A DNA stretch of 64,000 bases, from positions 45,816 through 109,815 of the forward strand of contig CAZSRA010000001.1 of the NCBI GenBank assembly GCA_964609585.1. Direction: 5' to 3'. A program made the position numbers and the translations under genes. The notes below the pieces were generated by a model. That model did not search any database, was not told where the DNA came from, and saw nothing but the letters and a program-made list of their open reading frames with translations. This stretch comes from an uncultured Candidatus Saccharimonadales bacterium (GTDB taxonomy: Bacteria > Patescibacteriota > Saccharimonadia > UBA4664). Positions 6,618 to 28,500 of the stretch are shown in pieces; within the stretch, counting starts at the first letter, position 1; each line of letters opens with the position of its first letter.

Positions 6618-6620
6618 GGT

Positions 6621-13850: not shown

Positions 13851-14552
13851 TTAAGCGCTTGGAGTAGTGGACGGAGGCGTGACGGTTGGCGCTTCGGTGA
13901 CTGGAGCTTGAGCGGGTGCGGGCATAGCTGCGGGTGCAGTTGGTGCCACTGCTGGAATAGCGGCGGGTGCTGCGGCCTCTGACGGCGGCGTAGCAGGAGC
14001 TGCTGGGGCTGTTGCCGGAGCGGCGGGTGTGGGCGTCGAAGGAATTGCGGGTGCTGCCGGAGTGGTGGGTGCTGGAGCTGTTGCTGCCGGCACTGCAGGA
14101 GTGGGTACGGCAGCGGGAGCTGCTGCCGGCGCGGTTGTTGCGGCCGGAGCCGGAGCCGCGGCACTGGCGGTTAAGACTTCTTTAACGATACTTGCCACAT
14201 CTTTGGGGTCGTGTTCACTTTTAATGATGTATTTGACGGCACCTTTGGCAATGGCGGATTCAGCGTCTTGTTGACCGGCGAGGTTGGTGAGCATAATAAC
14301 GGGAGTGGCCTTGAGTTTGGGGTCGGCTTTGACCTGCTCGAGAGCAGCAAGGCCGTTTAGCCGGGGCATCATGACGTCTAGAATCATGAGAGTCGGTGGA
14401 TTTTCGCGAGCTTTGTCGAGGGCATCTTGGCCGTCAACGGCCATTTGGACTTGGTAGCCTTCGAAATTGAAAACTTTTTCGTAAAGGCGAGCCATCATTG
14501 GGTCATCTTCTGCGATAAGGATGCGTGTAATCATGGCTTGATTGTACCTCAT
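13851..14552 (-). CDS. Stand-alone response-regulator receiver domain (CheY-like) with a ~110-aa Pro/Ala/Thr-rich C-terminal low-complexity tail and no DNA-binding output domain.
   Basis: Receiver signature residues are present: AEDDPMM, LMILDVMMP (phospho-acceptor Asp), LTNL (Thr) and KYIIK (Lys). The tail is APAPAATTAPAAAPAAVPTPAVP... It sits last in a minus-strand operon after the 311-aa surface protein and the sensor-like membrane protein. Confidence 0.8.
   Translation of the reverse strand: MRYNQAMITRILIAEDDPMMARLYEKVFNFEGYQVQMAVDGQDALDKARENPPTLMILDVMMPRLNGLAALEQVKADPKLKATPVIMLTNLAGQQDAESAIAKGAVKYIIKSEHDPKDVASIVKEVLTASAAAPAPAATTAPAAAPAAVPTPAVPAATAPAPTTPAAPAIPSTPTPAAPATAPAAPATPPSEAAAPAAIPAVAPTAPAAMPAPAQAPVTEAPTVTPPSTTPSA
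13860..14200. repeat. Low-complexity GC-rich coding repeat (gctgc/gccgg periodicity) encoding the Pro/Ala/Thr tail of the receiver protein.
   Basis: Direct reading shows imperfect short tandem repeats. The opposite-strand ORF 14029..14274 (Gly/Ala/Val-rich) is its antisense artefact. Confidence 0.6.
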
Positions 14553-14565
14553 ATTTTAGGAGTTA

Positions 14566-16152
14566 TTAATGGAGTTGGCGAGAAATTTGGCTGGCAAGGG
14601 CAAAAACGGGAATTGTGATTACGAGCAGGGCAAGCGATGCGCCGATAAAAGTGAGGCCAACAGCGCTTTTGGCGCTACTTAGCACCACGTCTTGGGGCTG
14701 GCCGACAAAGAGCATGCCGACAACGGTATTATTAATGTTTTTGAGTGGTAGGTACACGGATAAATAGGGTTGGCCCGCGATAGTAAAGATGCCTTTGGAG
14801 ATTTGGCCGTGTTTGATGGTGGTATCGAGTACTTGAGCGTGCGTTTCCTTGGTGCCGATGGAGCGCGAAACACCATCTAGCTCGGTGAGGGTGCTGGCGG
14901 CTCTAATGGTGCCGCTATAAACGGCGCTGTCAAGACCGGTTTTGTGTTTGAGGCCGTCGGCGAAGGCGTTGTCGAGTGCTAGGCTTACCAGGGCGGTGCC
15001 AATGATCTGGCCATTTTGTTTGATGGGGCTGGCGGTGGTGATGACGAGGGTGGGGGCGAGGGCGCCGGAATGGGCGGCGAAGCTGGAGTTGGTAGCGTTG
15101 TTTAGGGCTCGCTGTACCAGTGGGTCGTTTGAAAGTGAGTCGCCGGAGCGCTCAGGATCGGAGGCGCGGGACAAGATTCTGCCGGCGTCGTCGGTGATGA
15201 TGACCTCAGAGAGCTGTTTATTTATGAGGAGGCTACCGGTGATGTTCGTAAGTGCGGTGTGATCGTGGGCGGTGGTGGCGGCGATTGTTGCGGGGTCGCT
15301 TGCTAGAACTTCGGCATTGGTGCGGGTGTCGGCGGTTTTGCTATCGACGGCGTAGCTGAGAACTTTGCTGGTGGTTTCGAGGCTTGCGAGCGAATCGCGC
15401 TGGAGACTGCTTAGCAGGAGGGCGGAAACGCTGGTGGTGGCCGTTAGAACGATGGCGAAGGTGAGACTTGTGATGGTGAGGAATAACTGGCCGAGGAGGC
15501 GTTTGGTGAGATAACGCCAGACCCAGCGGGCAAGGAGGGCGGAACCAACGAGAATGGCCAGGTGTTCTAGTATCCAAAAAGGGCCGAAAACGGTAATGAA
15601 TGGCTGGAGGAGGGGATTACTACTGGTGCTCCAAAGTTGCGAGACGGCGAAGCTGTCGGAGAGCGTGAACGTGAGAAAAACGACAGCCAGGGGCTTTAAA
15701 TGTCGTTCAAGGCCGCGGGTGGCAATGCGCCAGTAGACGAGGCTTGTTGTGAAAGCGGCGATAGGTAAGAGGCTGGTGAGGCCGGTAGTGACTTGGGGCG
15801 GGATGATGGCGGCTGGAATCCAAGCTGGGGACGGGGTGTAGCCAGTGGTTTTGGGGCGGGGTTGAAGCGGGACAATGAGATTTCCGGTGATAATGCCGAT
15901 GTAGCCGGCAAACTTGAGCAGGTTTGCGATGAGGCCGATAAGACCAGGATTTCCCCAGGTGGCTCCGTTCATGAGGAAACCGGCGGCGAGTAATAGAAAA
16001 CCGCCACCTTTCGTGATCTCGGTGAGGTGGCGACGTTCGACCCAGGCATCCAGAAACAGCCAGGCGGCGGAGAGGCAGGCAAGAGCTGCGAATAAGTTGA
16101 TGCCGAAATGAAGGCTTTGGCCAATGAATTGGACAGAGATGACGTCTGGCAT
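14566..16152 (-). CDS. Polytopic membrane protein (528 aa). It has ~6 N-terminal TM helices, an extracytoplasmic Cache-like sensor domain and one C-terminal TM helix. No kinase, HAMP or MCP output domain is present.
   Basis: Hydrophobic helices run through residues ~1-290. TM-embedded motifs RGLERHLKP and FGPFWILEH are conserved in the paralog 37056..38804. The C-terminal part '...YLSVYLPLKNINNTVVGMLFVGQPQ' followed by a TM helix resembles the end of a Cache/sensor domain before TM2 of histidine kinases. The protein stops right after that helix. Confidence 0.65.
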   Translation of the reverse strand: MPDVISVQFIGQSLHFGINLFAALACLSAAWLFLDAWVERRHLTEITKGGGFLLLAAGFLMNGATWGNPGLIGLIANLLKFAGYIGIITGNLIVPLQPRPKTTGYTPSPAWIPAAIIPPQVTTGLTSLLPIAAFTTSLVYWRIATRGLERHLKPLAVVFLTFTLSDSFAVSQLWSTSSNPLLQPFITVFGPFWILEHLAILVGSALLARWVWRYLTKRLLGQLFLTITSLTFAIVLTATTSVSALLLSSLQRDSLASLETTSKVLSYAVDSKTADTRTNAEVLASDPATIAATTAHDHTALTNITGSLLINKQLSEVIITDDAGRILSRASDPERSGDSLSNDPLVQRALNNATNSSFAAHSGALAPTLVITTASPIKQNGQIIGTALVSLALDNAFADGLKHKTGLDSAVYSGTIRAASTLTELDGVSRSIGTKETHAQVLDTTIKHGQISKGIFTIAGQPYLSVYLPLKNINNTVVGMLFVGQPQDVVLSSAKSAVGLTFIGASLALLVITIPVFALASQISRQLH

Positions 16153-17072
16153 TATTGGGCTACAAGATAGTCATAGTTTAGGGCGGAACCGGTGGGGGCG
16201 GGAGAGTCGGTGTGAACCTGGAAACCGCTGGTGGTGCGCGTGATGTAGGCTGGCGTGCTGGCGGCGGCACCGGTGAGTGGGGTGAGCATGACATGCACGG
16301 TACTTGAGTAAGCGGCGCGGAAGGTGATGGTGCCGAGGACGCCAGCGGCGGTGCTCCCGCCAGTATTGAAGTTCAGGGTACCGGTAGTATCGTTGCCGCT
16401 GAGACTCACGGTGCCGCCAGCACCAACGGCGGCACCAGCGACAGCGCCGGGAGCAGCGCCTTGGGTTTGGAGGTGGCTAATGAGAAGCGGGCCGCTGATG
16501 GTGAGCGTATTCACGGCGATGGAGCTGGCATTGAGGGCATTTACACTGGTGGCGCCGGTGACGCTGAGATTGCCGTTGACGGCCGCAAGTCCGGTAACGC
16601 TTAAGCTCTTTTGAAAGGTGGCGAGGCCGGCTACAGTGAGATTTGAGCCGACGTTGAGTCCAGTGAGAGCAGTGGTGCCGGAAATGTTGAGCTCAGAGAG
16701 GGTGACAGGACCATTGGCATTGAAGTGGCCGCCCACACTGAGGTCCCCGCCAACATCGATTTTGCCGCGGAAGATGGTGTCGGCGCCGATGTTTAAGTTT
16801 TGCCCGTTGCTACCGAGGGTGGAGCCGACTTGGCTGAGCCGACTGAGCTCGGCTGGGGTGAGATTGGTGATAGAGGGAGTATTTGTTTTGGGGGCTGGTT
16901 GTTTACTTTTGGCATAAAAATAACCGACGGCGACGCCAATAACTATGAGAAACACGAAAAGCGCCGTGATACTGGCGGCTGTCGTGGCTCTGGCTTGGAG
17001 TTGGTTCCAGCGTGGTCCTTTCGGGCTTGCCTGTGGTTTTATAGGGTTTTGGGAAGGCGTGACTGGGGGCAT
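16152..17072 (-). CDS. Membrane-anchored surface protein (~306 aa) with beta-helix-like S/T/G/N repeats. The ATG at 17072 is preferred; the ORF track starts at TTG 17087.
   Basis: The RBS gaggaact lies 4 nt before ATG 17072. The TM helix is ITALFVFLIVIGVAVGYFYA. Repeats include 'LNISGTTALTGLNVGSNLTVAGLATFQKSLSVTGLAAVNGNLSVTGATSVNALN'. Its stop overlaps the start of the next gene (TAATG), suggesting translational coupling. Confidence 0.6.
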   Translation of the reverse strand: MPPVTPSQNPIKPQASPKGPRWNQLQARATTAASITALFVFLIVIGVAVGYFYAKSKQPAPKTNTPSITNLTPAELSRLSQVGSTLGSNGQNLNIGADTIFRGKIDVGGDLSVGGHFNANGPVTLSELNISGTTALTGLNVGSNLTVAGLATFQKSLSVTGLAAVNGNLSVTGATSVNALNASSIAVNTLTISGPLLISHLQTQGAAPGAVAGAAVGAGGTVSLSGNDTTGTLNFNTGGSTAAGVLGTITFRAAYSSTVHVMLTPLTGAAASTPAYITRTTSGFQVHTDSPAPTGSALNYDYLVAQ

Positions 17073-17100
17073 AGTTCCTCGAACCAATTGATGATTGTAG

Positions 17101-17200: not shown

Positions 17201-18019
17201 ATGAGACGATGGAATCGCCAGGTTGTGATTGTTGTGGCCCTATGTTTGGGGGTTTCGGGTATGGCTCATGCGACGCTGGGTGATCCGACTTCAACGTCGA
17301 CGAGTTATAAGGTCGTGGAAAGCGAGATAGGTGGAAGTGGCTGCGCAAATAAGACTGTTCCAGCTTGCGGCGGTTCGACCTCGTATTCGCTCGACCCGAA
17401 TGTGGATGATGGCGGTTCGACGTTGGGTGATACGGCTGTTGGAAACTCGAGTTCGACGAGTTATCAGACGAACAGCGGCTTTGATACTACGGCGCAACCG
17501 GGGCTTACAATGACAGTAAGCGGGACGCCTGCGGACTTGGGGGCGCTTTCGACGTCTGCGGCGAGTACTGCGACAGCGACTTTTAATGTTAAGAACTATA
17601 CGGCTTGGGGTTATGCAGTGCAGATCATAGGTTCGCCCCCGACCAACAGTGGACATGCGCTAACAGCTATGACGACAACTTCATATGGTGATGCTTCGGT
17701 AAATAATACGGAGCAGTTTGGACTGAACCTTGTGCACAATACGAGCCCAGTGGCTGTAGGGACTAATCCGGCTCAGATACCAAGCAGTTCGTTTAGCTAT
17801 GGCGTAGCAGGAGATGGCGCAACTGGGACATTTGGTACTAACCGGCCATATACCGTCGATGGACGATACCGGTTTGTGTCGGGGGAGACTGTGGCGAGTG
17901 CGCCAAAGTCTTCAGGTGAGACGGATTATACGATAACGTTTTTAGCGAATATGGGGCCGACAACGCCGGGTGGTAAATATAGTGGAGCATTGCAAATTGT
18001 GGCAACGGGGACTTATTGA
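17201..18019 (+). CDS. Secreted beta-rich protein, paralog family member P1 (272 aa).
   Basis: Signal peptide MRRWNRQVVIVVALCLGVSGMAHA. Shared motifs with P2-P4 are 'EQFGLNLVHN' and a C-terminal strand 'GGKYSGALQIVATGTY' that ends exactly at the stop. Confidence 0.7.
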   Translation: MRRWNRQVVIVVALCLGVSGMAHATLGDPTSTSTSYKVVESEIGGSGCANKTVPACGGSTSYSLDPNVDDGGSTLGDTAVGNSSSTSYQTNSGFDTTAQPGLTMTVSGTPADLGALSTSAASTATATFNVKNYTAWGYAVQIIGSPPTNSGHALTAMTTTSYGDASVNNTEQFGLNLVHNTSPVAVGTNPAQIPSSSFSYGVAGDGATGTFGTNRPYTVDGRYRFVSGETVASAPKSSGETDYTITFLANMGPTTPGGKYSGALQIVATGTY

Positions 18020-18023
18020 CGCG

Positions 18024-18048
18024 TTTATAATGCTTATGTTAGGCTGAC
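18024..18048 (+). promoter_or_regulatory. Conserved promoter-like motif with a plus-strand TATAAT (18026-18031) upstream of P2.
   Basis: About 20 of 29 nt are identical to the motif at 17101-17129. Confidence 0.35.
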
Positions 18049-18103
18049 TGTAGTTATTGCGTAGATGGCTGTAAAAGCGTAAGGGTAAAGGAAAACTGAG
18101 ACA

Positions 18104-19234
18104 ATGAATAAGAGAGAGATTTTAAGAGCTCACTATATCGGGTTGCTGAGAAAGGCGATGAACTGGGCTGGGCTTTTTGCCTTACTCTCTACGACACTCA
18201 TGGCGAGCCCGGTGAGTGCTACGGCTGGTGTGCTTGGCACAAGGAGTTCTACGCTCAACAACTCAAAGGGTGCGGCAACAAACGTTACGTCCACATTTCT
18301 TGTGACTCCTGGTACGAGCGCAACAATTAAGGGTGTGAAGTTTTCTTTGTGTACTTCGCCGCTTCTGTCTGTCTCATGTGCATCACCCGCAGGAGCGACT
18401 CTGGCTGCTGCTACGGCTGGATCGCAGCTAAAGAATGCTGGTGCTATCACAAACCCCTACGCTAGCCCGGCATACACAAGCACGACCGATGTGTGTTTTA
18501 CGAACGCTACCGGTAACGCTTTTAACGGCTCGTCGGACACGTTTACTTTTCCGCTTCAGGTTATAAGCTTGCCAACAGCCGTAAATACTCAGTTCTACTT
18601 CCGTGAGCAAACGTTCTCTAGTGCTGACTGTACCACGACTGCAGTTGACTTTGGTGGCTTTGCCGAGTCGACAACTCAGCAGCTTTCTGTGACAGCGAGC
18701 GTTCAAGAAAACTTGGCATTTTGTGTAGGTAACGCGAACCCTTCAGGTACATGTGCATCGATTGGGACTGGTACTGTAACCTTAAGCCCATCTGTTATGA
18801 CAACGAGCGCTCCGTCGATTGGTAACGCTTGGATGATGGTAACGACCAATGCTGGTACAGGTTATGTCATTACGTATAACGCAACTTCGTTTACTGATAC
18901 GACCTCCGATACCATCACAGCTGCTCCATCGGGTGGAGCTGCCCTTGGAGCAGGCGGCAGTGAACAGTTTGGCTTCAACTTGGTGGCAAACTCGGGTGGT
19001 AACTTCGGAACGTTCGGTGCTGCGCCAACGAACAGTGGTGCCGCAACGAGCCCCTATGGCACTAACAACCAGGTGGCCTATAACACTGCGGGCGCTACGC
19101 AGGTTGCGAGCTTTGGTAGCCCGACCGCGAGTCCGCAGACCTACACCATCTCATACGGTGCTAACGTAGCAGCTACTACTAAGGCTGGTGTTTACACATC
19201 GACGCAGACGTTTATCGCGACCGGCACTTTTTAA
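18104..19234 (+). CDS. Secreted beta-rich protein, paralog P2 (376 aa). An alternative start at 18158 is possible.
   Basis: The hydrophobic signal is LFALLSTTLMASPVSATAG. Shared motifs are 'EQFGFNLVANSGG' and the C-terminus 'AGVYTSTQTFIATGTF'. Confidence 0.7.
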   Translation: MNKREILRAHYIGLLRKAMNWAGLFALLSTTLMASPVSATAGVLGTRSSTLNNSKGAATNVTSTFLVTPGTSATIKGVKFSLCTSPLLSVSCASPAGATLAAATAGSQLKNAGAITNPYASPAYTSTTDVCFTNATGNAFNGSSDTFTFPLQVISLPTAVNTQFYFREQTFSSADCTTTAVDFGGFAESTTQQLSVTASVQENLAFCVGNANPSGTCASIGTGTVTLSPSVMTTSAPSIGNAWMMVTTNAGTGYVITYNATSFTDTTSDTITAAPSGGAALGAGGSEQFGFNLVANSGGNFGTFGAAPTNSGAATSPYGTNNQVAYNTAGATQVASFGSPTASPQTYTISYGANVAATTKAGVYTSTQTFIATGTF

Positions 19235-19247
19235 CCACTCGTCTTTC

Positions 19248-19281
19248 AAATACACGCACTTGGAATGGTGCGTGTATTTTT
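19248..19281 (+). terminator. Rho-independent terminator after P2.
   Basis: Stem aaatacacgcac pairs with gtgcgtgtattt across loop ttggaatg and is followed by a T-tract. The RBS aggagag lies before ATG 19297. Confidence 0.65.
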
Positions 19282-19296
19282 AATCAGGAGAGAGAT

Positions 19297-21057
19297 ATGA
19301 AGCAATTTATCCGTTTCAGGAGTCGCACGAAAAAATCGCTTGCTGTGGTCGCAACATTGGTGATTGAAATGGGTAGCTTGTTTCTGCCAGCAATGTCAGG
19401 GGTTGCTCAGGCGTCGCCTAGTATTACTGAGTATTCTGTTCCGACAGCTAGCGCCACGCCGGAGGGGATAACATTTGGTCCTGACGGGGCTTCTTGGTTT
19501 GTAGAATACAGCGGTAATAACATCGGACGTATTGATGCGGATGGTTCTGTTGTAGAATATGCGATCCCGACAAGCGGTGCTAACCCTTACAGTATTACGA
19601 CTGGGCCAGATAATGCTCTTTGGTTTACGGAATTTAGCAGCGGCAAAATTGGACGTATCACTACGTCGGGTACTATAACGGAGTTTTCAATCCCTTCGAG
19701 CACCCCGCGGCCGTATGGTATCGCCACTGGGCCCGATGGGGCTTTGTGGTTTACTGAGACCAACGCAGGAAAAATCGGGCGAATTACTACTTCGGGTAAT
19801 ATTACTGAGTTTAGTATTACGGGTAGTTTGACTCTTGTTCCGACTGGCATTGCTTCCGGTTCAGACGGCGCTCTCTGGTTTGCAAATTATTCAGACAATA
19901 GCATTGGCCGCATCACGACGAATGGGGTGGTTACGATATACCATATTCCGTCGACTGCTCAAGGTGGAGCTACGACTGGACCTTACGAAATTACAAACGG
20001 ACCCGATGGCGCCTTATGGTTTAGCGAGCTTTCCAACGCGAATCACATTGGCAGGATTACTACTTCGGGTGTAATAACCGAATTTCCGATACCGACATCA
20101 TCTGCATACCCTCTAGGGATTACGGTGGGATCGGATGGGGCTCTATGGTTTACTGAACTCGCAGGAAATAAAATTGGTCATATAACGACTTCGGGTGATG
20201 TGACTGAGATTTCAGTACCGACGGATGGTGCTGAGCCGGCTGAGATTACGGCGGGAGCTAATGGTTCGTTATGGTTTACGGAGGACACCGGAAAGATCGG
20301 TTATATCTCTACTGCACCAGTTGCATCATCTGCTCCGACTGGTTTGAGCGCTGTAACTCCTACAAATAATGCTCCGGTTCTAACTTGGAACTCGGTACCT
20401 ACGGCTGCGAGCTACCAGGTGTGGCGGCAGGATACTTTGACTGGCTTGACGGTGGAGGCGGCATCTAATGTGGCGACGAATAATTTCACGGATGTGTATT
20501 CGCCGGGCGTCTACAATTATACGGTGGTGGCTGTGAATGGTGCCGGGGCAATGAGCGCGCCGTCGACGGCTTTTCAGGTGGCGGTTACGAATACGGCAGC
20601 GACAAACTCACGCAATCTTATGGCCCAGGGTCAGTCCCAGGTGCTACCTGCTTTTGGTAGGGACATTTTGCCTGGTTTGGCTTCTGGTAATGCAATTCAA
20701 GCTTCGTTTGACTTTGATTTGGGGTATCCGGGTGGTGTGTTTACGGTAACTCGTCCACTTACTTTTACGTTTAATGCTGGTGGACACACGTTGTTCATTG
20801 CTGCAACAAGCTCCGATTGGTTGGTGATAAATGGTGCGAATAACGCTCAAGGGACATTCCAGGGGGTTGCTAGGGTTGATCTTGATAATGTGACGACGGC
20901 TGGACTGCCTTACACGGTGACGGCGGTGGATGGTATGCAGGCTGGGGGCGGTGTGTCTAGTAGCTTTAAACTTACGGTTTTTGCCGATAGCTCTCGTTCT
21001 ACCGTTTTGTATTCGGTAAACGGACCGCTGACAAAAGGCAAGATTAAGGTGAATTAG
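19297..21057 (+). CDS. Secreted protein with a 7-bladed Vgb-like (streptogramin-lyase-type, COG4257) beta-propeller, then an FN3-like domain and a C-terminal domain of unknown function.
   Basis: The blade repeat 'ITE(F/Y)(S/P)(I/V)P...P(Y/E)GIT.GPDGALWFTE...(N/G)KIGRITTSG' occurs seven times. 'PTGLSAVTPTNNAPVLTWNSVPTAASYQVWRQ' is FN3-like. An N-terminal signal peptide is present. Confidence 0.75.
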   Translation: MKQFIRFRSRTKKSLAVVATLVIEMGSLFLPAMSGVAQASPSITEYSVPTASATPEGITFGPDGASWFVEYSGNNIGRIDADGSVVEYAIPTSGANPYSITTGPDNALWFTEFSSGKIGRITTSGTITEFSIPSSTPRPYGIATGPDGALWFTETNAGKIGRITTSGNITEFSITGSLTLVPTGIASGSDGALWFANYSDNSIGRITTNGVVTIYHIPSTAQGGATTGPYEITNGPDGALWFSELSNANHIGRITTSGVITEFPIPTSSAYPLGITVGSDGALWFTELAGNKIGHITTSGDVTEISVPTDGAEPAEITAGANGSLWFTEDTGKIGYISTAPVASSAPTGLSAVTPTNNAPVLTWNSVPTAASYQVWRQDTLTGLTVEAASNVATNNFTDVYSPGVYNYTVVAVNGAGAMSAPSTAFQVAVTNTAATNSRNLMAQGQSQVLPAFGRDILPGLASGNAIQASFDFDLGYPGGVFTVTRPLTFTFNAGGHTLFIAATSSDWLVINGANNAQGTFQGVARVDLDNVTTAGLPYTVTAVDGMQAGGGVSSSFKLTVFADSSRSTVLYSVNGPLTKGKIKVN

Positions 21058-21148
21058 ACGCTCGTTTTGAGTATGAGGTTCGTTGACTGTTCTCACCTAG
21101 GCGCGTAGTATAAGCTTAAGCAATTTATATGAGCTTGTTTTGTAGATT

Positions 21149-22261
21149 ATGAAAATAAAAAACCTGCTTGCTAGAAGTCTGATTGTAATGATTGCGGTGG
21201 CGCTTGTGCCTGCATTTGTGAGCGAGGCAGCGCAGCCCACAAACCGGGTGTTGGCACTAGGAAGTTCGGCTACTAGTGCGGTTACGACATACGCGTTTAG
21301 TTTTAAACCTGCAACGACCGGGAATATTGGGGCGATAAAATTTGAGGTTTGCGACTCGCCACTTGAGGCTTTTGGTTGTGTGAATACGGGCGACTCAAAT
21401 GGTGTTAGTTTTACTTCCAGTGGCGCGAGTATCCAAAGTCAATCAGGTATTTCGGGTTTTACGGCTGGTACGGGGACACCGCCCGCTCCTACTACAAATA
21501 CGTTTTGGATTACAAATGGCACACCGCAGAATATAAATTCGAGTACGACAGTAACGGTAACATTTCAAAATGTGCGGAACCCTTCAGCTGCAAATAAGGA
21601 GTTTTATGGCCGGATGACGACTTATTCGGATTCGGCAGGAACTGCTGAGGTAGATTTTGGGGCAGTCGCAGTGGATACGGTGAGTCAAATTACGGTAACG
21701 GGTAATATGCCCGAGAGCCTGGTGTTTTGTGTGGGGACGAGTGGGACGGACTGCACGAATCTCACAGGAACGGCCGTAACGCTCGGGACGTTTTCGCCGG
21801 TGAGTACAAATGTGGGCACGAGTTTGATGAGTGCGAGTACAAATGCTGGTTTTGGATATGCGATTACGCTCGTGGGAACGACGCTCACGAGTGGGTCGAA
21901 TACGATTCCGGCTATGGGGACGCAGTCGCTGAACTCGACTGGCTGTGCAGTGAGCTGTACGTCGGCTACGGGGACGAGCCAGTTTGGTTCGAATGTGCGG
22001 GCGAATAATGTGGCGTCTGCCGGTGGAGTCTTTGGGGCGGACGTGACGCCAACGGGGGCTGGTTTTAACGGTGTAGGAGCGGGCGGGTACAATACGGCAA
22101 ATTCGTTTCGGTTTTTTAATGGTGATACGGTGGCGAATTCGGGTGGAACAACGTCTAAGGCACAGTTATTTACCAATTCGTATCTGGTGAATGTAGGTGG
22201 GGATCAGGCCGCGGGAGTGTATACAGCTACGATGACTTATATCTGTACGGCGACGTTCTAA
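21149..22261 (+). CDS. Secreted beta-rich protein, paralog P3 (370 aa).
   Basis: Signal MKIKNLLARSLIVMIAVALVPAFVSEAA. Shared motifs are 'SQFGSNVRANNV' and the C-terminus 'AGVYTATMTYICTATF'. Confidence 0.7.
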   Translation: MKIKNLLARSLIVMIAVALVPAFVSEAAQPTNRVLALGSSATSAVTTYAFSFKPATTGNIGAIKFEVCDSPLEAFGCVNTGDSNGVSFTSSGASIQSQSGISGFTAGTGTPPAPTTNTFWITNGTPQNINSSTTVTVTFQNVRNPSAANKEFYGRMTTYSDSAGTAEVDFGAVAVDTVSQITVTGNMPESLVFCVGTSGTDCTNLTGTAVTLGTFSPVSTNVGTSLMSASTNAGFGYAITLVGTTLTSGSNTIPAMGTQSLNSTGCAVSCTSATGTSQFGSNVRANNVASAGGVFGADVTPTGAGFNGVGAGGYNTANSFRFFNGDTVANSGGTTSKAQLFTNSYLVNVGGDQAAGVYTATMTYICTATF

Positions 22262-23406
22262 TGAAGACTTTGCGCAGCGTATTGCGGCGTCACAATCTCC
22301 GCTTCGCATTCGGGGTACGTCTGAGTACTCCTCATTTGCGATGCTCATTGTTCCTTGCACTCCATCTGCGCAAAGCCTTCATTAATGCAGCTACATTGCG
22401 GCGCTCACTGGCTTGGATGCTGGTGTGGGCGCTGGGGCTAGTGCCGTTTACGGCATCGGCGGCGGGTTTGTCGCCGCGCAACATTGCGGTGGGATCGAGT
22501 GCGCAAGGGGTGACGACGAGCTATACGGCGAATTTCACGACAGCAACGACGGCCAATATTGGCTCGATTAAGTTTGCTTTTTGTGATAGTGCCACGGGTA
22601 CGTGCAATGTGCCGGCGGGGGTGGTGACGACATCGGCGACGCTATCGGCGCAGTCGGGAGCGGTCGGGTTTTCGATGGTGAATGCGACGAACGGCGCACC
22701 TTACATTACGCGCGGGGCGGCGAATTTGAATAGCGGCACGGCGGTGAGTTATACGCTGGGCTCGATTACGAACCCAGCAGCGACCAATACCAGCTACTAT
22801 GTGCGGATTACGACATATACGGGGTCGGACGGAGCTACCGGGGCGACTGATACGGGTACGGTGGCGCTCAGCACAGCTCAGCCGGTGCAGCTTACCGGGG
22901 TGACGCCGGAGATTTTGGTATTTTGTGCTGGTACGTCGATTACGAGTGACTGCACGACGGTATCGGGTAATACGATTGATTTTGGGGACTTTTCGCCGGT
23001 AGGGACGCGTAGTGGTACGAGCGTAATGCAGGCGCAGACGAATGCAGCGAACGGTTACTCGATAACGGTGAACGGTACCACGCTGTCGTCGGGCATCAAT
23101 ACGATTCCGGCGCTGGCGTCGCAGACGGCGAGTGCTCTGGGGGTGGGTCAATTTGGGCTGAATGTACGGGCTAATACGGTGCCGGCGGTGGGGGCGGATC
23201 CAACGGGCAGCGGGAGTGGGACGTTTTCGGCGAACTATGGCACAGCCAACCTATACCGATTTGTGAGTGGGGATAGTGTGGCCCAGGCAGCGGCGCCAAC
23301 GAACGCAAATACGTTTACTTCGAGTTATATTGTAAATATTGGTGGAGCGCAGGCAGCGGGCGTGTATACGGCGACAATGACGTATATTTGTACAGCTAGT
23401 TTTTAG
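22261..23406 (+). CDS. Secreted beta-rich protein, paralog P4. It is the closest paralog of P3. The true start is probably TTG 22396 or ATG 22420, which gives a normal signal peptide.
   Basis: ATG 22261 overlaps the P3 stop (TAATG), but it would add a 45-aa Arg-rich N-extension. The region 'RRSLAWMLVWALGLVPFTASAAG' aligns to the P3 signal peptide. The C-terminus is 'AGVYTATMTYICTASF'. Confidence 0.6.
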   Translation: MKTLRSVLRRHNLRFAFGVRLSTPHLRCSLFLALHLRKAFINAATLRRSLAWMLVWALGLVPFTASAAGLSPRNIAVGSSAQGVTTSYTANFTTATTANIGSIKFAFCDSATGTCNVPAGVVTTSATLSAQSGAVGFSMVNATNGAPYITRGAANLNSGTAVSYTLGSITNPAATNTSYYVRITTYTGSDGATGATDTGTVALSTAQPVQLTGVTPEILVFCAGTSITSDCTTVSGNTIDFGDFSPVGTRSGTSVMQAQTNAANGYSITVNGTTLSSGINTIPALASQTASALGVGQFGLNVRANTVPAVGADPTGSGSGTFSANYGTANLYRFVSGDSVAQAAAPTNANTFTSSYIVNIGGAQAAGVYTATMTYICTASF

Positions 23407-23451: not shown

Positions 23452-24432
23452 ATGCTTAAGAAGTTTGTGAGTGGTGTTATGTTGGCGGGGAGTGCAGTTG
23501 TGGCACTCTCATCTTGGGCGGTGGCTGCGACGCCACCGACAGGTGCGTCTACGGGTTCGCCGGGGCAGGGACTTGAGATTTCGCCGCCGGTGATTGAGCT
23601 GTCGGCTGATCCGGGTCAAACGGTAACGGCTAGCATTCGTGTTCGCAATGTGACTCAGGGCGAGCTGATCGCGAAGGGTAAGGCCGATGACTTTGGCGCC
23701 AGTACGGATGAGACGGGTCAGCCGAGGCTGCTCCTCGATGAGACGGGTGAGACCCGGTTTTCTTTGAAATATTGGGTACAGGGTGTGCCGGATTTGCGGC
23801 TCGCACCACAAGAGTTGAAAACGAACGTCGTTAAGATTGTGGTCCCGGCAAATGCGGAACCGGGCGGACATTTTGGGGTGATCCGGTTTACCGCGGTACC
23901 GCCAGATTTAAATGGTACGGGTGTGGCGTTGTCGGCTAGTGTTGGGGCGCTTGTGCTCCTGAAGGTAAGCGGGACCATTACTGAAAAGGTGAGCTTGGCG
24001 GAGTTTTCAGCCCTTCAGGGTGGAAAGAAAAGCGGCTTTTTTGAGCATGGGCCGATAGACTTTTTGGTGCGGGTGCGAAATGAGGGGAGTGTGCACGAGA
24101 AGGCTCAGGGCAGCATTTCGGTGACCAATTGGCAAGGTAAGCAGATTGCATCGATACCGGTGAATGCAAAGGGTGGGAATGTATTGCCGGATAGTATTCG
24201 GCGATTTGAGCAGAGTTTGAGCGAAAAGCAACTATTCGGGCATTATTCCGCTAAATTAGCTTTGAATTATGGTGGTGGCAAGCTGCTAAGTGCATCGCTT
24301 GGGTTTTGGGTGATTCCGTGGAAGCTTATCCTGCTGGTTTTGCTCGGAATTATCGTAGTAGGCTATCTGCTTAGAATTGGCCTACGTAAGTACAATGAGC
24401 ATATTATTGCGCAAGCAAGACGTCGCCGCTAA
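23452..24432 (+). CDS. Cell-surface protein (326 aa) with an N-terminal signal peptide and a C-terminal TM anchor plus basic tail. It is DUF916/DUF3324-like (CscA-like).
   Basis: Signal MLKKFVSGVMLAGSAVVALSSWAVAA. 'ISPPVIELSADPGQTVTASIRVRNVTQGEL' fits the DUF916-type pattern (..PGQ.qtl.v.v.N.s..). The C-terminal 'WKLILLVLLGIIVVGYLLRIGLRKYNEHIIAQARRRR' is a TM helix followed by a charged tail. Confidence 0.45.
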   Translation: MLKKFVSGVMLAGSAVVALSSWAVAATPPTGASTGSPGQGLEISPPVIELSADPGQTVTASIRVRNVTQGELIAKGKADDFGASTDETGQPRLLLDETGETRFSLKYWVQGVPDLRLAPQELKTNVVKIVVPANAEPGGHFGVIRFTAVPPDLNGTGVALSASVGALVLLKVSGTITEKVSLAEFSALQGGKKSGFFEHGPIDFLVRVRNEGSVHEKAQGSISVTNWQGKQIASIPVNAKGGNVLPDSIRRFEQSLSEKQLFGHYSAKLALNYGGGKLLSASLGFWVIPWKLILLVLLGIIVVGYLLRIGLRKYNEHIIAQARRRR

Positions 24433-24456: not shown

Positions 24457-25413
24457 ATGAAAGCTGGTTTATTACAGCTCGTAGCGCACGAGCATAGTGG
24501 CAAAATGCGGCCGCATGCTCACACTTCGTATGCGAGCCTTGTGTTTTTGTTGATCTTGAGCGGTATAGTGCTGCTGGCCTCAAGTCTGGCTGTGCAGGCG
24601 GCACCACCGGCGGTAAATCCGCAGAGCGGCTCGGTGGGTCTATCTGGAACCGTGCCGGGACCGCCGCCTACGACGTCGGCGGTGATTTTGAGCCCGCAGT
24701 CGGGTTCGCATGTTTCGAGTAGCCCGGTGACGGTGTCTGGGACGTGTCCGTTGCATACGTTTGTGAGCGTAGAAAACAATCAGGTATTCGCGGGCGTAAC
24801 GAGTTGTGGGGCGAATGGGACATTTTCGCTATCTATAGATTTGTTTGCTGGAGCGAATGTACTTGTGGCTAGGGTGTCGGATGCGCTTGGGCAATTTGGG
24901 CCGGATTCGGCCGCGGTAACTGTATTTTATGATGTGTCTAGTCCGAGTTTGGCTGGTGGTTTGGCGGGGAAGCCGTTGTTTTTGCAGTCGACTTCGATGG
25001 TGCTCGGCACAAGTCCTGCTCAGATTCTGGTGCGGAGCGTGACGATCGTTGGGGGTGTGGGGCCGTACGCCGTTAGTTTTGATTGGGGAGATGGCAAGAG
25101 TGATCTTGTGAGTACAGAGGCCGAGGGTGCAGTGGAGGGTCGTCATGCGTATAGCCAGCCGGGCAATTATCAGGTGATTGTAAGGGCGACAGACGCTCGG
25201 GGCAACAATGCCTTACTTGAGCTTGTGACGGTGGTGAATGGGCCAATCGCCGCATACGGCGCAAATAACGATACAGGACTGGGTGCAATGCCCGGGGTAC
25301 TCTTGACGGCTTGGCCTTTGTACACTTTGGCTTTTTTTATGGTTGGGTTTTTTTGGCTCGGTGAGCGGCACGAAAATCGCAAATCGCGACGCAATCAGTT
25401 GCATTTGCAATAG
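24457..25413 (+). CDS. Membrane-anchored protein with Ig-like domains, a PKD domain and a C-terminal TM helix.
   Basis: PKD signature 'VSFDWGDGKSDL...GRHAYSQPGNYQVIVRATDARGN'. The N-terminal hydrophobic segment is SLVFLLILSGIVLLASSLA. The C-terminal helix is LLTAWPLYTLAFFMVGFFWL. Confidence 0.7.
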   Translation: MKAGLLQLVAHEHSGKMRPHAHTSYASLVFLLILSGIVLLASSLAVQAAPPAVNPQSGSVGLSGTVPGPPPTTSAVILSPQSGSHVSSSPVTVSGTCPLHTFVSVENNQVFAGVTSCGANGTFSLSIDLFAGANVLVARVSDALGQFGPDSAAVTVFYDVSSPSLAGGLAGKPLFLQSTSMVLGTSPAQILVRSVTIVGGVGPYAVSFDWGDGKSDLVSTEAEGAVEGRHAYSQPGNYQVIVRATDARGNNALLELVTVVNGPIAAYGANNDTGLGAMPGVLLTAWPLYTLAFFMVGFFWLGERHENRKSRRNQLHLQ

Positions 25414-25520: not shown

Positions 25521-28500
25521 ATGATTTTCAAGCTTATCAAAAAGCATTTGAGTAATCTGATAAATCCTCGTACTGCTCTGGCCTTTATTGGGCTTGGGCT
25601 TGTTTCGGTTGGAATTGCGGGACTTAATGCGCAATCGGCTCAGGCCGTGGGTGCCGCTGGAATCAATCAGACTATCAACTACCAAGGCCGGCTCCTCAAT
25701 GCGGCTGGGGCCGTGATTGCTGATGGTACTTACAACATGGAATTTAAAATCTACCAAGATGGTGATGGTTGTGTGTCTGGTGGTACCTCGCCGTGTAGCG
25801 GTACTTTGAAGTGGACGGAAGATTGGATCAATAGCGGTACGGACAAACGGGTGGTCGTGAAGAATGGTTACTTTTCGGTAAACCTGGGGAGTGTTACCGC
25901 TTTCGGTGGTTCGGTGAACTGGAACTGGGACACTTTGTGGCTAACTCAGACGGTGGCTTCGGGGAATCCTACTGGGAGCTGTACGCCTTTCTCGACTTGC
26001 AATAGTGGTAACGAGCCGGAAATGCTGCCGATGAAGCGGTTGTCGAGTGCGGTGTACGCCTTGAATTCGCAGCAACTTGGAGGACTGACGGCGGGGCAAT
26101 ACGTACAGCTAGCGCAGGGAGTGCAAGCAGATTCGAGCACGACTAACCCATCAATTTTTATCAATAAGACGGGTGCGACGGCCAACATTTTGGAGCTGCA
26201 AAAGGCAGGGGGAGATGTGTTGACGGTGAATAATGCTGGTGCGACTACTTTGCAAAATAGTACCGACTCGGCAACGGGCTTCTTGGTGAAGTCGGCCTCT
26301 GGTTCGCTGAATGCGTCGGTGTTTGATGTAGACACTTTGAACCAGCGCATCGGGGTCAACACGAATGCTCCGAGTGATACATTCCAGATTAATCAAGGGA
26401 CGACGGCGCTGCCGGGGACAGTATCGAACAGCGCTAGTTCGCCGAATGTGACGGGCTCTGCTACGACATTTACCACGAGCTTTTTGGTAGGGGATACGTT
26501 TACCGTTACTTCTACGACTAATACTTGTACGATTTTAAGCATTACCGACAATACTCATTTGGTTTGTACGGGAAATTTGAGCACGCTTTCGTCGAACTCG
26601 GCTTACACGATGGGTAACATTGGGCGGATTGGTGTTTTGGCCAATGGCTCTTTGGGCGTGGGGACGACGAGTCCGACGCAATCCTTGCAGGTGACGGATG
26701 CGGGTGGAAATACGGCATTTTCGGTAGACACGCGCAACCTCCGGGTGGGCATTGGGACGGCAAACCCAACGAACCGATTTACGGTAAATGGTGGCAATAG
26801 CTTATTTACCAATACTTCGACTACGAGTACGACGCCAACGTTGTCGGTAACCACTACGGCGACTCCGACGACGGGTAATACGATTACGAGCTTGTCGAAC
26901 ACCCTTACGAACACGCCGACGAGTGTGGCTAACACGGCAATTGGGCAGGCTGTGACGGTGACAGATGCGACGACGCTTGCGAACACGCTCCAAGGTTTCA
27001 GCTTGGTCGTGAGCGACACCGGGACTGGGGCGAAAGTGGTGCGGGGACTGAGCGTGGATACCACTGGTACGACGAACGGGTCGGCCGCGGTGACGACGGC
27101 ATTGTTTAAGGCGGCCACTTCAACTACGGCTTTCCAGGTGCAAAATACTAGTTCGCAGGCGATTTTGGCTGTGGACACTTCGGCTAATGTAGTGGCGATT
27201 GGCGGCACCCAGCCGACGGTACAAAGTGCTTCGGGTAATTTGACGGTACTGGCCCAGGGCACTAATCAGTTGTCGCTTGATACGGGTAGTACTGGAACAG
27301 TGGTGGTGGGTAGCAGCAATGCGGCAACGGTAACGATTGGTAATTCGAACACGGCAACGAATGTGACCGGGATTTTGGGTGGTGCGGGGGCGAGCGGCGG
27401 TGGGATTAATATTGGTGGTGGGACCAATGCCCAGACTGTCAATATTGGTAGTACGGTGGCGGCAACAGCGGTCAATATTCAGGGTGGTTCGACTGGCGGT
27501 ATTAACATTGGTACTTCGGGTAGTCCGACGATCACGATTGGTAACTCGGCCACGACAACCAAGATGGGCGGACGCGTCGGTGTCGGCACTGCGGCTCCGA
27601 CGGAGCAGCTGGACGTTGAAGGCCAACTTCCCTCTGCGACTATAGGTAGCGCCTTTACAACCGGAAATCCCGCCTACGATGTAGCTACCGAAGGGCAGTA
27701 CGCCTACACTGCTTCTTACGGTAAGTTTGATACTTGGGACGTTACTCGCCCAAGCGCACCGGTCAAGTTGGGAACTCTCTCCATCTCTACCGGCATCGTT
27801 TATGTGAAGGTTAGTGGTAAATATGCCTTCGTAGTAAATGGCACAACCAGTCAGCTCTACATCATAAACATTAGTAATCCTGCTAGCCCGTCACTGACTG
27901 CTACAGTTGGCACCTCAGTAACTGTGGGTACCCTAACCCAGTTAAATACGGTGGCGATACAGGGCCGTTATATGTACCTCGGCGCATCTACGGTTAGCAA
28001 TAATTACGTTCTTGTCTATGACATTAGCAATCCAGCAACTCCGCAGTATGTGGCGAACGTTATCGAAACACAAGGCGTAGACTCCATAGCGATCCAAGGT
28101 ACTTACCTTTATGCCACGATTGCTGCCACCGGTTTGCAGATAGTTGATATCTCCAATCCCGCAGCGCCTGTCAACAAGGGGTCTCTTTCTTCCTCCTCAA
28201 CTAATACCGTTATCGTACAAGGCCGGTACGCCTACTTGTCTCTCGGTACTACTTTGCAGGCGGTCAACGTATCTGATCCAACCGCTCCCGTGAGCGCGGG
28301 GACCGTCACGCTTGATAGCTCAGAATCAAATATGGTTATGCAGGGAAAATACATATATGTAGCTATCAGCACCTCGCATGAGCTTCAGGTAGTTAACGTT
28401 TCGAACCCGGCTTCAATGAGCATCACGGGAACTATCGCCACCGGAACCGAAGTCCGATCCGTCGCCCTAGCCGGCAACTACGCTTATGTATCCGACTATA

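Follow-up and report, generated by a model that had tools for sequence, protein, structure and literature searches.

The Pam families were defined in a 2026 preprint on Candidatus Mycosynbacter amalyticus, in which Pam pili are described as donor-strand-exchange pili specific to the Candidate Phyla Radiation (CPR) (10.64898/2026.03.03.709456). Cryo-electron microscopy (cryo-EM) of PamA and PamB filaments shows the inter-domain linker of one subunit donated into the open C-terminal domain of its neighbour; this domain resembles truncated immunoglobulin-like (Ig-like) pilins, and the donated linker and its binding site are the most conserved regions of the pilins (10.64898/2026.03.03.709456). 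The coordinates are those of PDB 25PZ and 25QA. Also encoded in the operon of that organism are PamC and PamD, two chaperones that each have a C-terminal transmembrane helix, the single-domain tip pilin PamT and the membrane-anchored terminator PamR, which is predicted to plug the last pilin (10.64898/2026.03.03.709456). In an epibiotic/parasitic Saccharibacterium, Pam pili count among the most abundant proteins, and they are believed to establish the first contact with the host cell. The present work concerns a locus of this kind in a stretch of 64,000 nucleotides (nt) from an uncultured Candidatus Saccharimonadales bacterium (contig CAZSRA010000001.1), referred to as the window, and in particular the C-terminal β-strand shared by four of its proteins.

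Two other surface systems are relevant for comparison. In the archaic chaperone-usher pili of Acinetobacter baumannii, the G1 strand of the chaperone CsuC hydrogen-bonds to strand F of the subunit CsuA/B, which ends in Phe152 directly after that strand. The terminal carboxylate is held in the cleft between the two CsuC domains, by Arg89 of domain 1 and Tyr196 and Arg174 of domain 2, and mutation of these anchor residues abolishes complex formation (PMC4654587). In the WxL clusters of Lactobacillales and Bacillales, AlphaFold predicts that a strand of the protein WxLIP completes the WxL sandwich (PMC9772566, PMC10599100).

The reading proposed here, to which a probability of roughly 0.75 is assigned, is that the four proteins are Pam pilus subunits and that their shared last strand serves as the F-like edge of the acceptor groove and as a C-terminal anchor, not as the donor strand.

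Four Pam pilins in one operon

The features of the operon are listed below by window position. The four pilin open reading frames (ORFs) are named ORF1 (17201-18019), ORF2 (18104-19234), ORF4 (21149-22261) and ORF5 (22261/22396-23406), all on the + strand; lengths are in amino acids (aa).

17201..18019, + strand: ORF1, PamT-like tip pilin, 272 aa, with a signal peptide, a unique N-terminal region and one Pam pilin C-terminal domain
17969-18016, + strand: terminal strand of ORF1, GGKYSGALQIVATGTY, the last 16 codons, then stop
18104..19234, + strand: ORF2, two-domain Pam pilin, 376 aa, with an N-terminal β-sandwich, a linker/donor region and a C-terminal acceptor domain
18677-18760, + strand: linker/donor region of ORF2, QQLSVTASVQENLAFCVGNANPSGTC
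19184-19231, + strand: terminal strand of ORF2, AGVYTSTQTFIATGTF, the last 16 codons, then stop
21149..22261, + strand: ORF4, two-domain Pam pilin, 370 aa
21683-21766, + strand: linker of ORF4, SQITVTGNMPESLVFCVGTSGTDC
22211-22258, + strand: terminal strand of ORF4, AGVYTATMTYICTATF, the last 16 codons, then stop
22396..23406, + strand: ORF5, two-domain Pam pilin, 336 aa from a probable TTG start; the frame is open from 22261 (381 aa)
22879-22962, + strand: linker of ORF5, QPVQLTGVTPEILVFCAGTSITSDC
23356-23403, + strand: terminal strand of ORF5, AGVYTATMTYICTASF, the last 16 codons, then stop
23452..24432, + strand: membrane-anchored assembly chaperone, counterpart of PamC/PamD; WxLIP homologue (DUF916, DUF3324 and a transmembrane segment)
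24457..25413, + strand: PamR, proposed terminator and membrane anchor, with RbmA-like and PKD-like domains and a C-terminal transmembrane helix

All four pilins match the curated hidden Markov model (HMM) of the Pam pilin C-terminal domain in NCBIfam release 20 (NF058581, CPR_Pam_pilin_C), with scores of 131, 83.4, 119.8 and 171.4 bits for ORF1, ORF2, ORF4 and ORF5 (E values 3.5e-38, 1.7e-23, 1e-34 and 1.2e-50), all above the 55-bit cut-off. In each case the match extends to model position 148 of 148, which is the last residue of the protein; the spans are residues 107-272 of ORF1, 223-376 of ORF2 and 206-370 of ORF4. Since all four match this model, the likeness of their C-termini is, judged by sequence comparison, due to homology and not to chance, and the C-terminal ~150 residues align with one another at 31-59% identity. 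Against the PamT model (NF058579, equivalog cut-off 240 bits) ORF1 scores 224 bits, with residues 7-272 aligned to model positions 3-241 of 241; it is PamT-like by architecture, yet below the equivalog threshold. The gene at 24457-25413 similarly reaches 292.6 bits against the PamR model (NF058578), just short of the equivalog cut-off of 300. The matches to the pilin, PamT and PamR models, together with the chaperone gene, identify the locus as a pam operon with a PamT-like tip pilin, three two-domain pilins of PamB/PamE size, one chaperone and PamR. The initial annotation had proposed, from the letters alone, that the four proteins are fibre subunits whose last strand has a role in assembly, and this proposal is supported by the NF058581 matches, by the fold class described below and by the preprint. 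The pilin family itself is already described and curated, and the locus adds a member to it.

Compared with M. amalyticus, the same families are found by the curated HMMs (the Pam set there being PamA, PamB, PamE, PamT, PamC/D and PamR), and both loci come from a Saccharimonadia host and encode a tip pilin of one domain, a chaperone that ends in a transmembrane helix, and PamR. They differ in that one chaperone is encoded here instead of two, that a pilin of PamA size (55 kDa) is absent, that a gene for a Vgb-lyase-like β-propeller is inserted between the pilin genes here, and that no ATP synthase genes occur among the scanned neighbours.

The distribution of the family is narrow. A profile built from the four C-terminal domains retrieved 974 relatives from 1.84 billion cluster-representative proteins; the best 150 of these, at pairwise identity below 50%, were used for family-wide counts of the strand, and the best 80 species-representative genome loci, in which 185 ORFs carry the Pam pilin C-terminal domain, for the survey of loci. 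All 80 loci belong to metagenome-assembled genomes of Saccharimonadia, Saccharibacteria or Patescibacteria; one 3.8-kb contig is labelled Acidoferrum. ORF5 has 627 homologues, and those that are named belong to Candidatus Saccharimonadia. The chaperone gene is found in 78 of the 80 loci, and where the flanks are complete the pilins co-occur with the chaperone in 38/38 loci and with PamR in 37/38. Orthologues of ORF5 are 336-349 aa long, and for this reason translation probably starts at the TTG at 22396 rather than at 22261, which would leave the first 45 codons untranslated. The 381-aa frame overlaps the stop codon of ORF4 (ATGA), and the TTG start yields a normal signal peptide (RRSLAWMLVWALGLVPFTASA/AG).

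The donor elements are recognisable as well. ORF2, ORF4 and ORF5 have in common the linker motif (I/L)-S-(V/I)-S-(A/T)-x-V-P-P-x-L-x-F-C-(V/A)-G...C, of which L174-x-F176-C177...C186 (ORF5 numbering) is conserved across the family. The L-x-F-C-(V/A)-G motif was not found in ORF1, as expected, because a tip subunit only accepts a strand. In PamR, the N-terminal strand of the mature protein, NPQSGS(I/V)GL(Q/E)GT(I/V)..PPP, is conserved in 73 orthologues; a short conserved strand followed by PPP fits the plugging of the last pilin predicted in the preprint.

Two further features of the pilins were observed. The N-terminal region of ORF1 (17270-17520, residues ~25-105) contains three spaced S-T-S-Y repeats, TSTSYKVVES, GSTSYSLDPN and SSTSYQTNSG, which might be self-complementing strands or a binding surface of the tip. 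In addition, the HMM of the C-terminal domain weakly matches the N-terminal domains (residues 112-147 of ORF5 and 81-100 of ORF4), a similarity that hints at an ancient duplication as the origin of the two pilin domains.

The terminal strand: ending, conservation and place in the fold

The translated ORFs confirm the four C-termini quoted in the initial annotation, each of which lies directly before its stop codon. Alignment with database homologues shows that the strand is conserved throughout the family, with the consensus (A/P)-G-x-Y-x-T-T-L-T-Y-I-(C/A)-(T/L)-(A/G)-x-F-COOH, in which G(-15) and Y(-13) are essentially invariant, and the broader pattern G(-15)-x-Y(-13)-x-T-T-(L/M)-T-(Y/F)-(I/V)-(C/A)-(T/L)-(A/G)-x-(F/Y)-COOH. 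Among the 150 representatives, the domain ends at the last residue of the protein in 148; of the 150, 130 terminate in F, 19 in Y and 1 in L (F/Y in 149/150). In the 80 loci, 182 of the 185 ORFs with the domain end at the strand (140 in F, 42 in Y), two more end in ...VPTF and one is a fragment; all of the closest ORF5 orthologues (120/120, 62-100% identical overall) end in ...Y(I/V)(C/S)TAxF. It is thus a family-wide rule, unmentioned in the Pam preprint, that the pilin ends in Phe or Tyr right after the last strand and carries no tail. A C-terminal sorting signal of the sortase or exosortase type is ruled out, as the strand is followed by neither a hydrophobic helix nor a basic tail. Conservation averages 2.86 bits over the last 15 residues and 2.38 over the domain as a whole, which ranks this segment second. 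The conservation noted in the initial annotation holds family-wide, but the strand does not come first among the segments of the domain.

ORF4 and ORF5 are identical in 15 of the 16 residues of the strand and in 37 of the 48 underlying nucleotides, and nine of the ten differing codons carry only synonymous third-position changes. As the differences are almost all synonymous, the terminal peptide appears to be held by selection, and recent gene conversion as the cause of the identity is ruled out. Both proteins have an odd number of cysteines. A role of C332 in an inter-subunit disulfide is unsupported, since this position is C or A in 61 versus 58 sequences across the family and no cysteine column covaries with it; such C/A alternation is typical of a small buried residue.

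The place of the strand in the fold was approached through an AlphaFold2 monomer prediction of ORF5 and through covariation in 346 family sequences (effective number, Neff, 240); the edge position is read from the covariation, not from the coordinates. The model has a mean predicted local distance difference test (pLDDT) score of 84.3, with an N-terminal domain at residues 28-159, a low-confidence segment at 161-170, the linker strand at 174-179 and the last strand at 328-334. Modelled alone, the C-terminal domain reaches a pLDDT of 89.1 and a predicted template modelling (pTM) score of 0.81, and in these models it is an incomplete, truncated Ig-like pilin fold. Among the top 50 Foldseek matches of this domain in the PDB, nearly all are chaperone-usher pilins (FimA, PapA, PapE, FimG, the pilin domain of PapG, CS20 and Csu), with E values of 0.01-0.2, probabilities up to 0.98 and template modelling (TM) scores of 0.35-0.50. 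The predicted structural likeness is thus moderate, yet the matches are very consistently fibre subunits completed by a donor strand. The full-length model retrieves generic two-domain Ig adhesins at TM scores of about 0.2 (CfaE, FimH and PapG), as well as 9i25_C, which is WxLIP itself and not a WxL domain.

The covariation analysis recovered its positive controls, namely the linker disulfide pair C177-C186 and the pair R258-D268. The terminal strand couples most strongly to residues 222-234 in antiparallel register (335-222, 328-229 and 323-234), and the strand at 302-314 couples to 205-215 and 252-260. These couplings fit the B-E-D / C-F strand order of Ig-like pilins and place the terminal strand in position F, at the open edge. 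In chaperone-usher pilins, strand F has a free edge that looks onto the groove where strand G is missing. By analogy, the free edge of the Pam terminal strand most likely borders the acceptor groove.

The likeness to classical chaperone-usher pilins (FimA, FimG, PapA and PapE; PF00419), which belong to the same fold class by Foldseek, extends to the C-terminal pattern, which in both has a Gly some 14 residues before the end, hydrophobic residues at alternate positions and an aromatic residue close to the end; FimA, for instance, ends in ...GAANADATFKVQYQ. The aromatic residue is penultimate in Fim pilins and terminal in Pam pilins. As for the archaic pili (CsuA/B-CsuC of A. baumannii and CupE; PMC4654587), no sequence similarity to them is detectable here. 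The Pam system differs from them in having neither an usher nor an outer membrane, in the membrane anchoring of its chaperone, in the use of an internal linker instead of an N-terminal extension as donor, and in the extra N-terminal domain of its subunits.

The chaperone, the assembly model and its alternatives

The gene at 23452-24432 is the only match to the chaperone profile in the window. By itself, its product matches the Pfam family WxLIP_PGBD (DUF916, PF06030) weakly and below the cut-off (E = 0.067); among its orthologues, however, PF06030 is matched by 34 of 46 close and 47 of 51 diverse sequences, with a best E value of 4.3e-10. In hhalign comparisons of the chaperone profile with E. 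mundtii WxLIP and E. faecium EfmWxLIP1 (PDB 9i1y / 9i25_C), probabilities of 97.0% (local, 217 columns) and 97.9% (global, 283 columns) were obtained at E values of 1e-10 to 2e-12, and the aligned region spans the two Ig-like domains as well as the transmembrane helix. The same comparison with FimC gives 0.2%, and PapD_N is matched by 2 of the 51 diverse orthologues, at E = 0.12. A search of the chaperone profile against PDB sequences returned noise only, no usher family was matched among the neighbouring large ORFs, and in the chaperone analysis tblastn against 72,556 plasmids gave four weak matches only (E 2-3). On these profile comparisons, the pam chaperone is clearly a homologue of WxLIP (DUF916/DUF3324) and not a member of the PapD family. 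The preprint calls it a structural homologue of FimC/PapD and mentions neither WxL, DUF916 nor Pfam (10.64898/2026.03.03.709456); the aromatic-terminated last strand is not discussed there either. The orthologue of TM7x had already appeared as a lone "DUF916" match at E = 5.9e-11 in Table S5 of Hassan et al. 2023 (PMC10599100), and a literature search found no paper that names both WxL/DUF916 and Saccharibacteria.

A mechanism can be proposed in which one edge of the terminal strand pairs intramolecularly with residues 222-234, while the other would border the groove left by the missing seventh strand. After Sec export, a strand of the membrane-anchored WxLIP-like chaperone would fill this groove, to be displaced during polymerisation by the linker strand that the following pilin donates and, at the base of the pilus, by the N-terminal strand of PamR. 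The C-terminal carboxylate and the aromatic ring of the pilin would dock in the cleft between the chaperone domains and later at the subunit interface; the proposed docking of a free carboxylate and an aromatic ring would explain the near-absolute lack of C-terminal tails. In the Pam chaperone family, R145 in domain 1 and R207, the invariant R250 and Y273 in domain 2 are conserved. The tail-less Phe/Tyr ending is a simple, testable handle on pilus assembly.

Several observations weigh against the proposed role of the strand. The segment QFGxNLxxNxxPxxG (residues 249-266) is more conserved than the terminal strand, and other strands are equally or more conserved (QFGxNL, TxSYxxN), so that conservation of the terminal strand may partly reflect the stability of the fold alone. 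The terminal strand covaries only weakly with the linker (block z = 1.1, within the top 11% of blocks), and we infer its contact with the donor strand from the arrangement of the fold rather than from coordinates. The residues of the Pam chaperone that would anchor the carboxylate are a guess made from conservation. Finally, sequence comparison offers no link to the chaperone-usher systems: hhalign of the Pam domain with E. coli FimA/I/F/G/H remains below 1%, Pfam finds no chaperone-usher family in the four ORFs and, among the 149 pilin relatives tested, PF00419 in only 2 and SCPU (PF05229) in only 2, the latter at E values of about 1, and PDB sequence searches with profiles of the full-length pilins and of the C-terminal domain give no match at E <= 10. 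Given this lack of sequence likeness to chaperone-usher pilins and chaperones, the analogy with them is structural only.

The conservation of other segments, the high confidence with which the monomer prediction folds the strand (pLDDT about 87-90) and the intramolecular nature of its strongest covariation, with residues 222-234, would all be expected of an ordinary β-sandwich strand that is conserved for folding stability only and takes no part in chaperone binding or strand exchange. Stability alone, however, leaves the tail-less aromatic ending in 184/185 ORFs and 148/150 representatives unexplained; WxL domains carry tails of 5-10 residues after a similar strand, and CsuA/B, the closest structural analogue, uses exactly such a terminus for anchoring to its chaperone, which makes this explanation improbable. 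The initial annotation had compared the strand with the edge and donor strands of fibre subunits. The first half of this comparison stands, in that the strand is most likely an edge strand, in a domain of the fold class built by donor-strand exchange; its alternating hydrophobic residues and terminal position also resemble the donor strands of some fibres, as would suit an exchanged strand that completes the neighbouring subunit. The second half does not stand, because the cryo-EM structures of PamA and PamB assign the donor to the inter-domain linker, and the strand is retained in the tip pilin, which has no need to donate one. Moreover, the strand is integral and of high confidence even when the C-terminal domain is modelled by itself, and a domain that gave it away would lack two strands. 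Donation of the terminal strand is therefore considered very unlikely.

The comparison with the second WxL motif, also made in the initial annotation, leads to the possibility of a divergent WxL domain, in which the strand would be that motif and would serve non-covalent anchoring to peptidoglycan instead of fibre assembly. The pattern Y-T-x-T-(L/M)-T-(Y/W)-x-(C/L)-T is common to the Pam strand and to ...YTSTLTWELT... of E. mundtii WxL proteins, and the best local hhalign match pairs exactly these two strands, ...AGVYTATMTYICT with ...ATSYSTKLTWELS. The adjacent chaperone is a WxLIP homologue, and the WxL domain is likewise always C-terminal, in clusters that hold small and large WxL proteins plus WxLIP (PMC9772566). 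Membership of the WxL domain family is nevertheless unsupported. The hhalign comparison of the two domains is not significant (P = 0.029, probability 1.7%), PF13731 (WxL) has no match at E <= 1 in the four ORFs or at E <= 10 in the 149 relatives, and against the Pam domain HMM the scores of Enterococcus WxL sequences do not exceed those of shuffled or reversed decoys. The two Trp-x-Leu motifs are absent from the Pam domain, where the candidate equivalent positions read Q-F-G-L-N and T-Y-I-C/A, with no Trp, and the E. mundtii WxL domain finds no match among PDB sequences. What the Pam domain has in common with WxL domains is that it is always C-terminal and adjoins the gene of a WxLIP homologue. 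A WxL domain with an anchoring role is thus a decidedly unlikely identity for this strand. Least of all does the evidence favour the third resemblance noted initially, that to the C-terminal β-signal for insertion of outer-membrane β-barrels, which is limited to the terminal aromatic residue and the alternating pattern. The models show two Ig-like sandwiches that match pilins and adhesins and no barrels, and on the basis of this fold the β-signal is rejected. The Saccharibacteria, to which the host belongs, are regarded as monoderm. The family has been observed as extracellular filaments (10.64898/2026.03.03.709456), and the chance that the strand is such a signal is considered negligible. For the four Pam pilins, then, the terminal strand is still best read as the F-like edge of the acceptor groove and the C-terminal anchor.

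The homology of the chaperones invites a wider comparison with the WxL clusters of Lactobacillales and Bacillales (PMC9772566, PMC10599100). Both systems follow a common logic, with a single-domain protein, multi-domain proteins that have the same C-terminal domain, and one membrane-anchored protein with two Ig-like domains. The second WxL motif resembles the Pam terminal strand, although WxL proteins have a short tail after the motif and Pam pilins have none; WxL proteins are described as peptidoglycan-bound surface proteins and Pam pilins as filaments, and no LPXTG partner is present at this locus. It may be suggested, tentatively and at somewhat less than an even chance, that a single ancient surface-assembly system of monoderms gave rise to both the Pam operons and the WxL clusters of Firmicutes, with WxLIP as a membrane-anchored donor-strand chaperone and the cargo domains as diverged homologues. 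With such a shared origin, the chaperone or donor strand would dock along a conserved edge formed by the aromatic-rich last strand, Y-T-x-T-L-T-[W/Y]-x-[L/C]. Strand complementation would then be what assembles or holds the long-enigmatic WxL proteins, and these might form short fibres. The link through WxLIP may matter more than the ending of the pilins, as it brings together a CPR pilus and the WxL clusters of enterococci, listeriae and lactobacilli, which are still poorly understood, and suggests a strand-complementation mechanism that is testable in genetically tractable organisms.

On the side of the WxL clusters, it was observed that the E. mundtii plasmid pQY182 carries a complete one at 158699-164043, consisting of an LPXTG protein, a small WxL protein, WxLIP and a large WxL protein. 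As this 182-kb plasmid is conjugative, the cluster is horizontally mobile in enterococci.

Neighbouring genes

Two genes that lie within or beside the operon are discussed below.

19297..21057, + strand: Vgb-lyase-family β-propeller protein, 586 aa, secreted, with an FN3-like domain and a C-terminal β region
16152..17087, - strand: divergent 311-aa protein with an N-terminal transmembrane segment and a β-helix/bactofilin-like repeat region

The product of 19297-21057 matches Pfam PF24684 at E = 1.3e-102, and a profile scan did not find the Pam C-terminal domain in it. A homologue is present in just 2 of the 80 related loci; the gene is probably a lineage-specific insertion and not a core component of the pam system, and its product could be an accessory adhesin or an enzyme. 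The protein encoded at 16152-17087 gives a weak Pfam match to Bactofilin (E = 0.007), and a homologue on the opposite strand lies upstream of the pilins in 51 of the 80 loci. It may be the "tail fibre-like" conserved neighbour mentioned in the Pam preprint.

Directly upstream of the operon, the region 13851-16152 on the - strand encodes a response-regulator-like protein of 233 aa and a 528-aa membrane protein with a double Cache sensor. A Pfam scan detected no kinase domain in these proteins, and the pair could be a sensory module that controls expression of the pilus.

Three very large predicted surface proteins rich in Thr, Ser and Gly (2193, 1585 and 2452 aa) are encoded at 36-11378 and 25521-32879, and none of them has an NCBIfam match. 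The gene of the 2452-aa protein lies directly 3' of pamR, and a downstream homologue is present in 11 of the 80 related loci. Paralogous proteins of ~768 aa, encoded at 11529-13838 and 34736-37039, combine a C-terminal DsbE/ResA-like thioredoxin domain with an OmpL47-type β region. They are candidates for extracytoplasmic disulfide formation, possibly relevant to the conserved cysteine pairs of the pilins.

Across the window (1-64000), the GC skew is positive in all 2-kb intervals (0.06 to 0.33), the cumulative skew rises monotonically, and nearly all long genes are on the + strand. The uniformly positive skew and the gene orientation together indicate that the window belongs to a single replichore with a strong strand bias.

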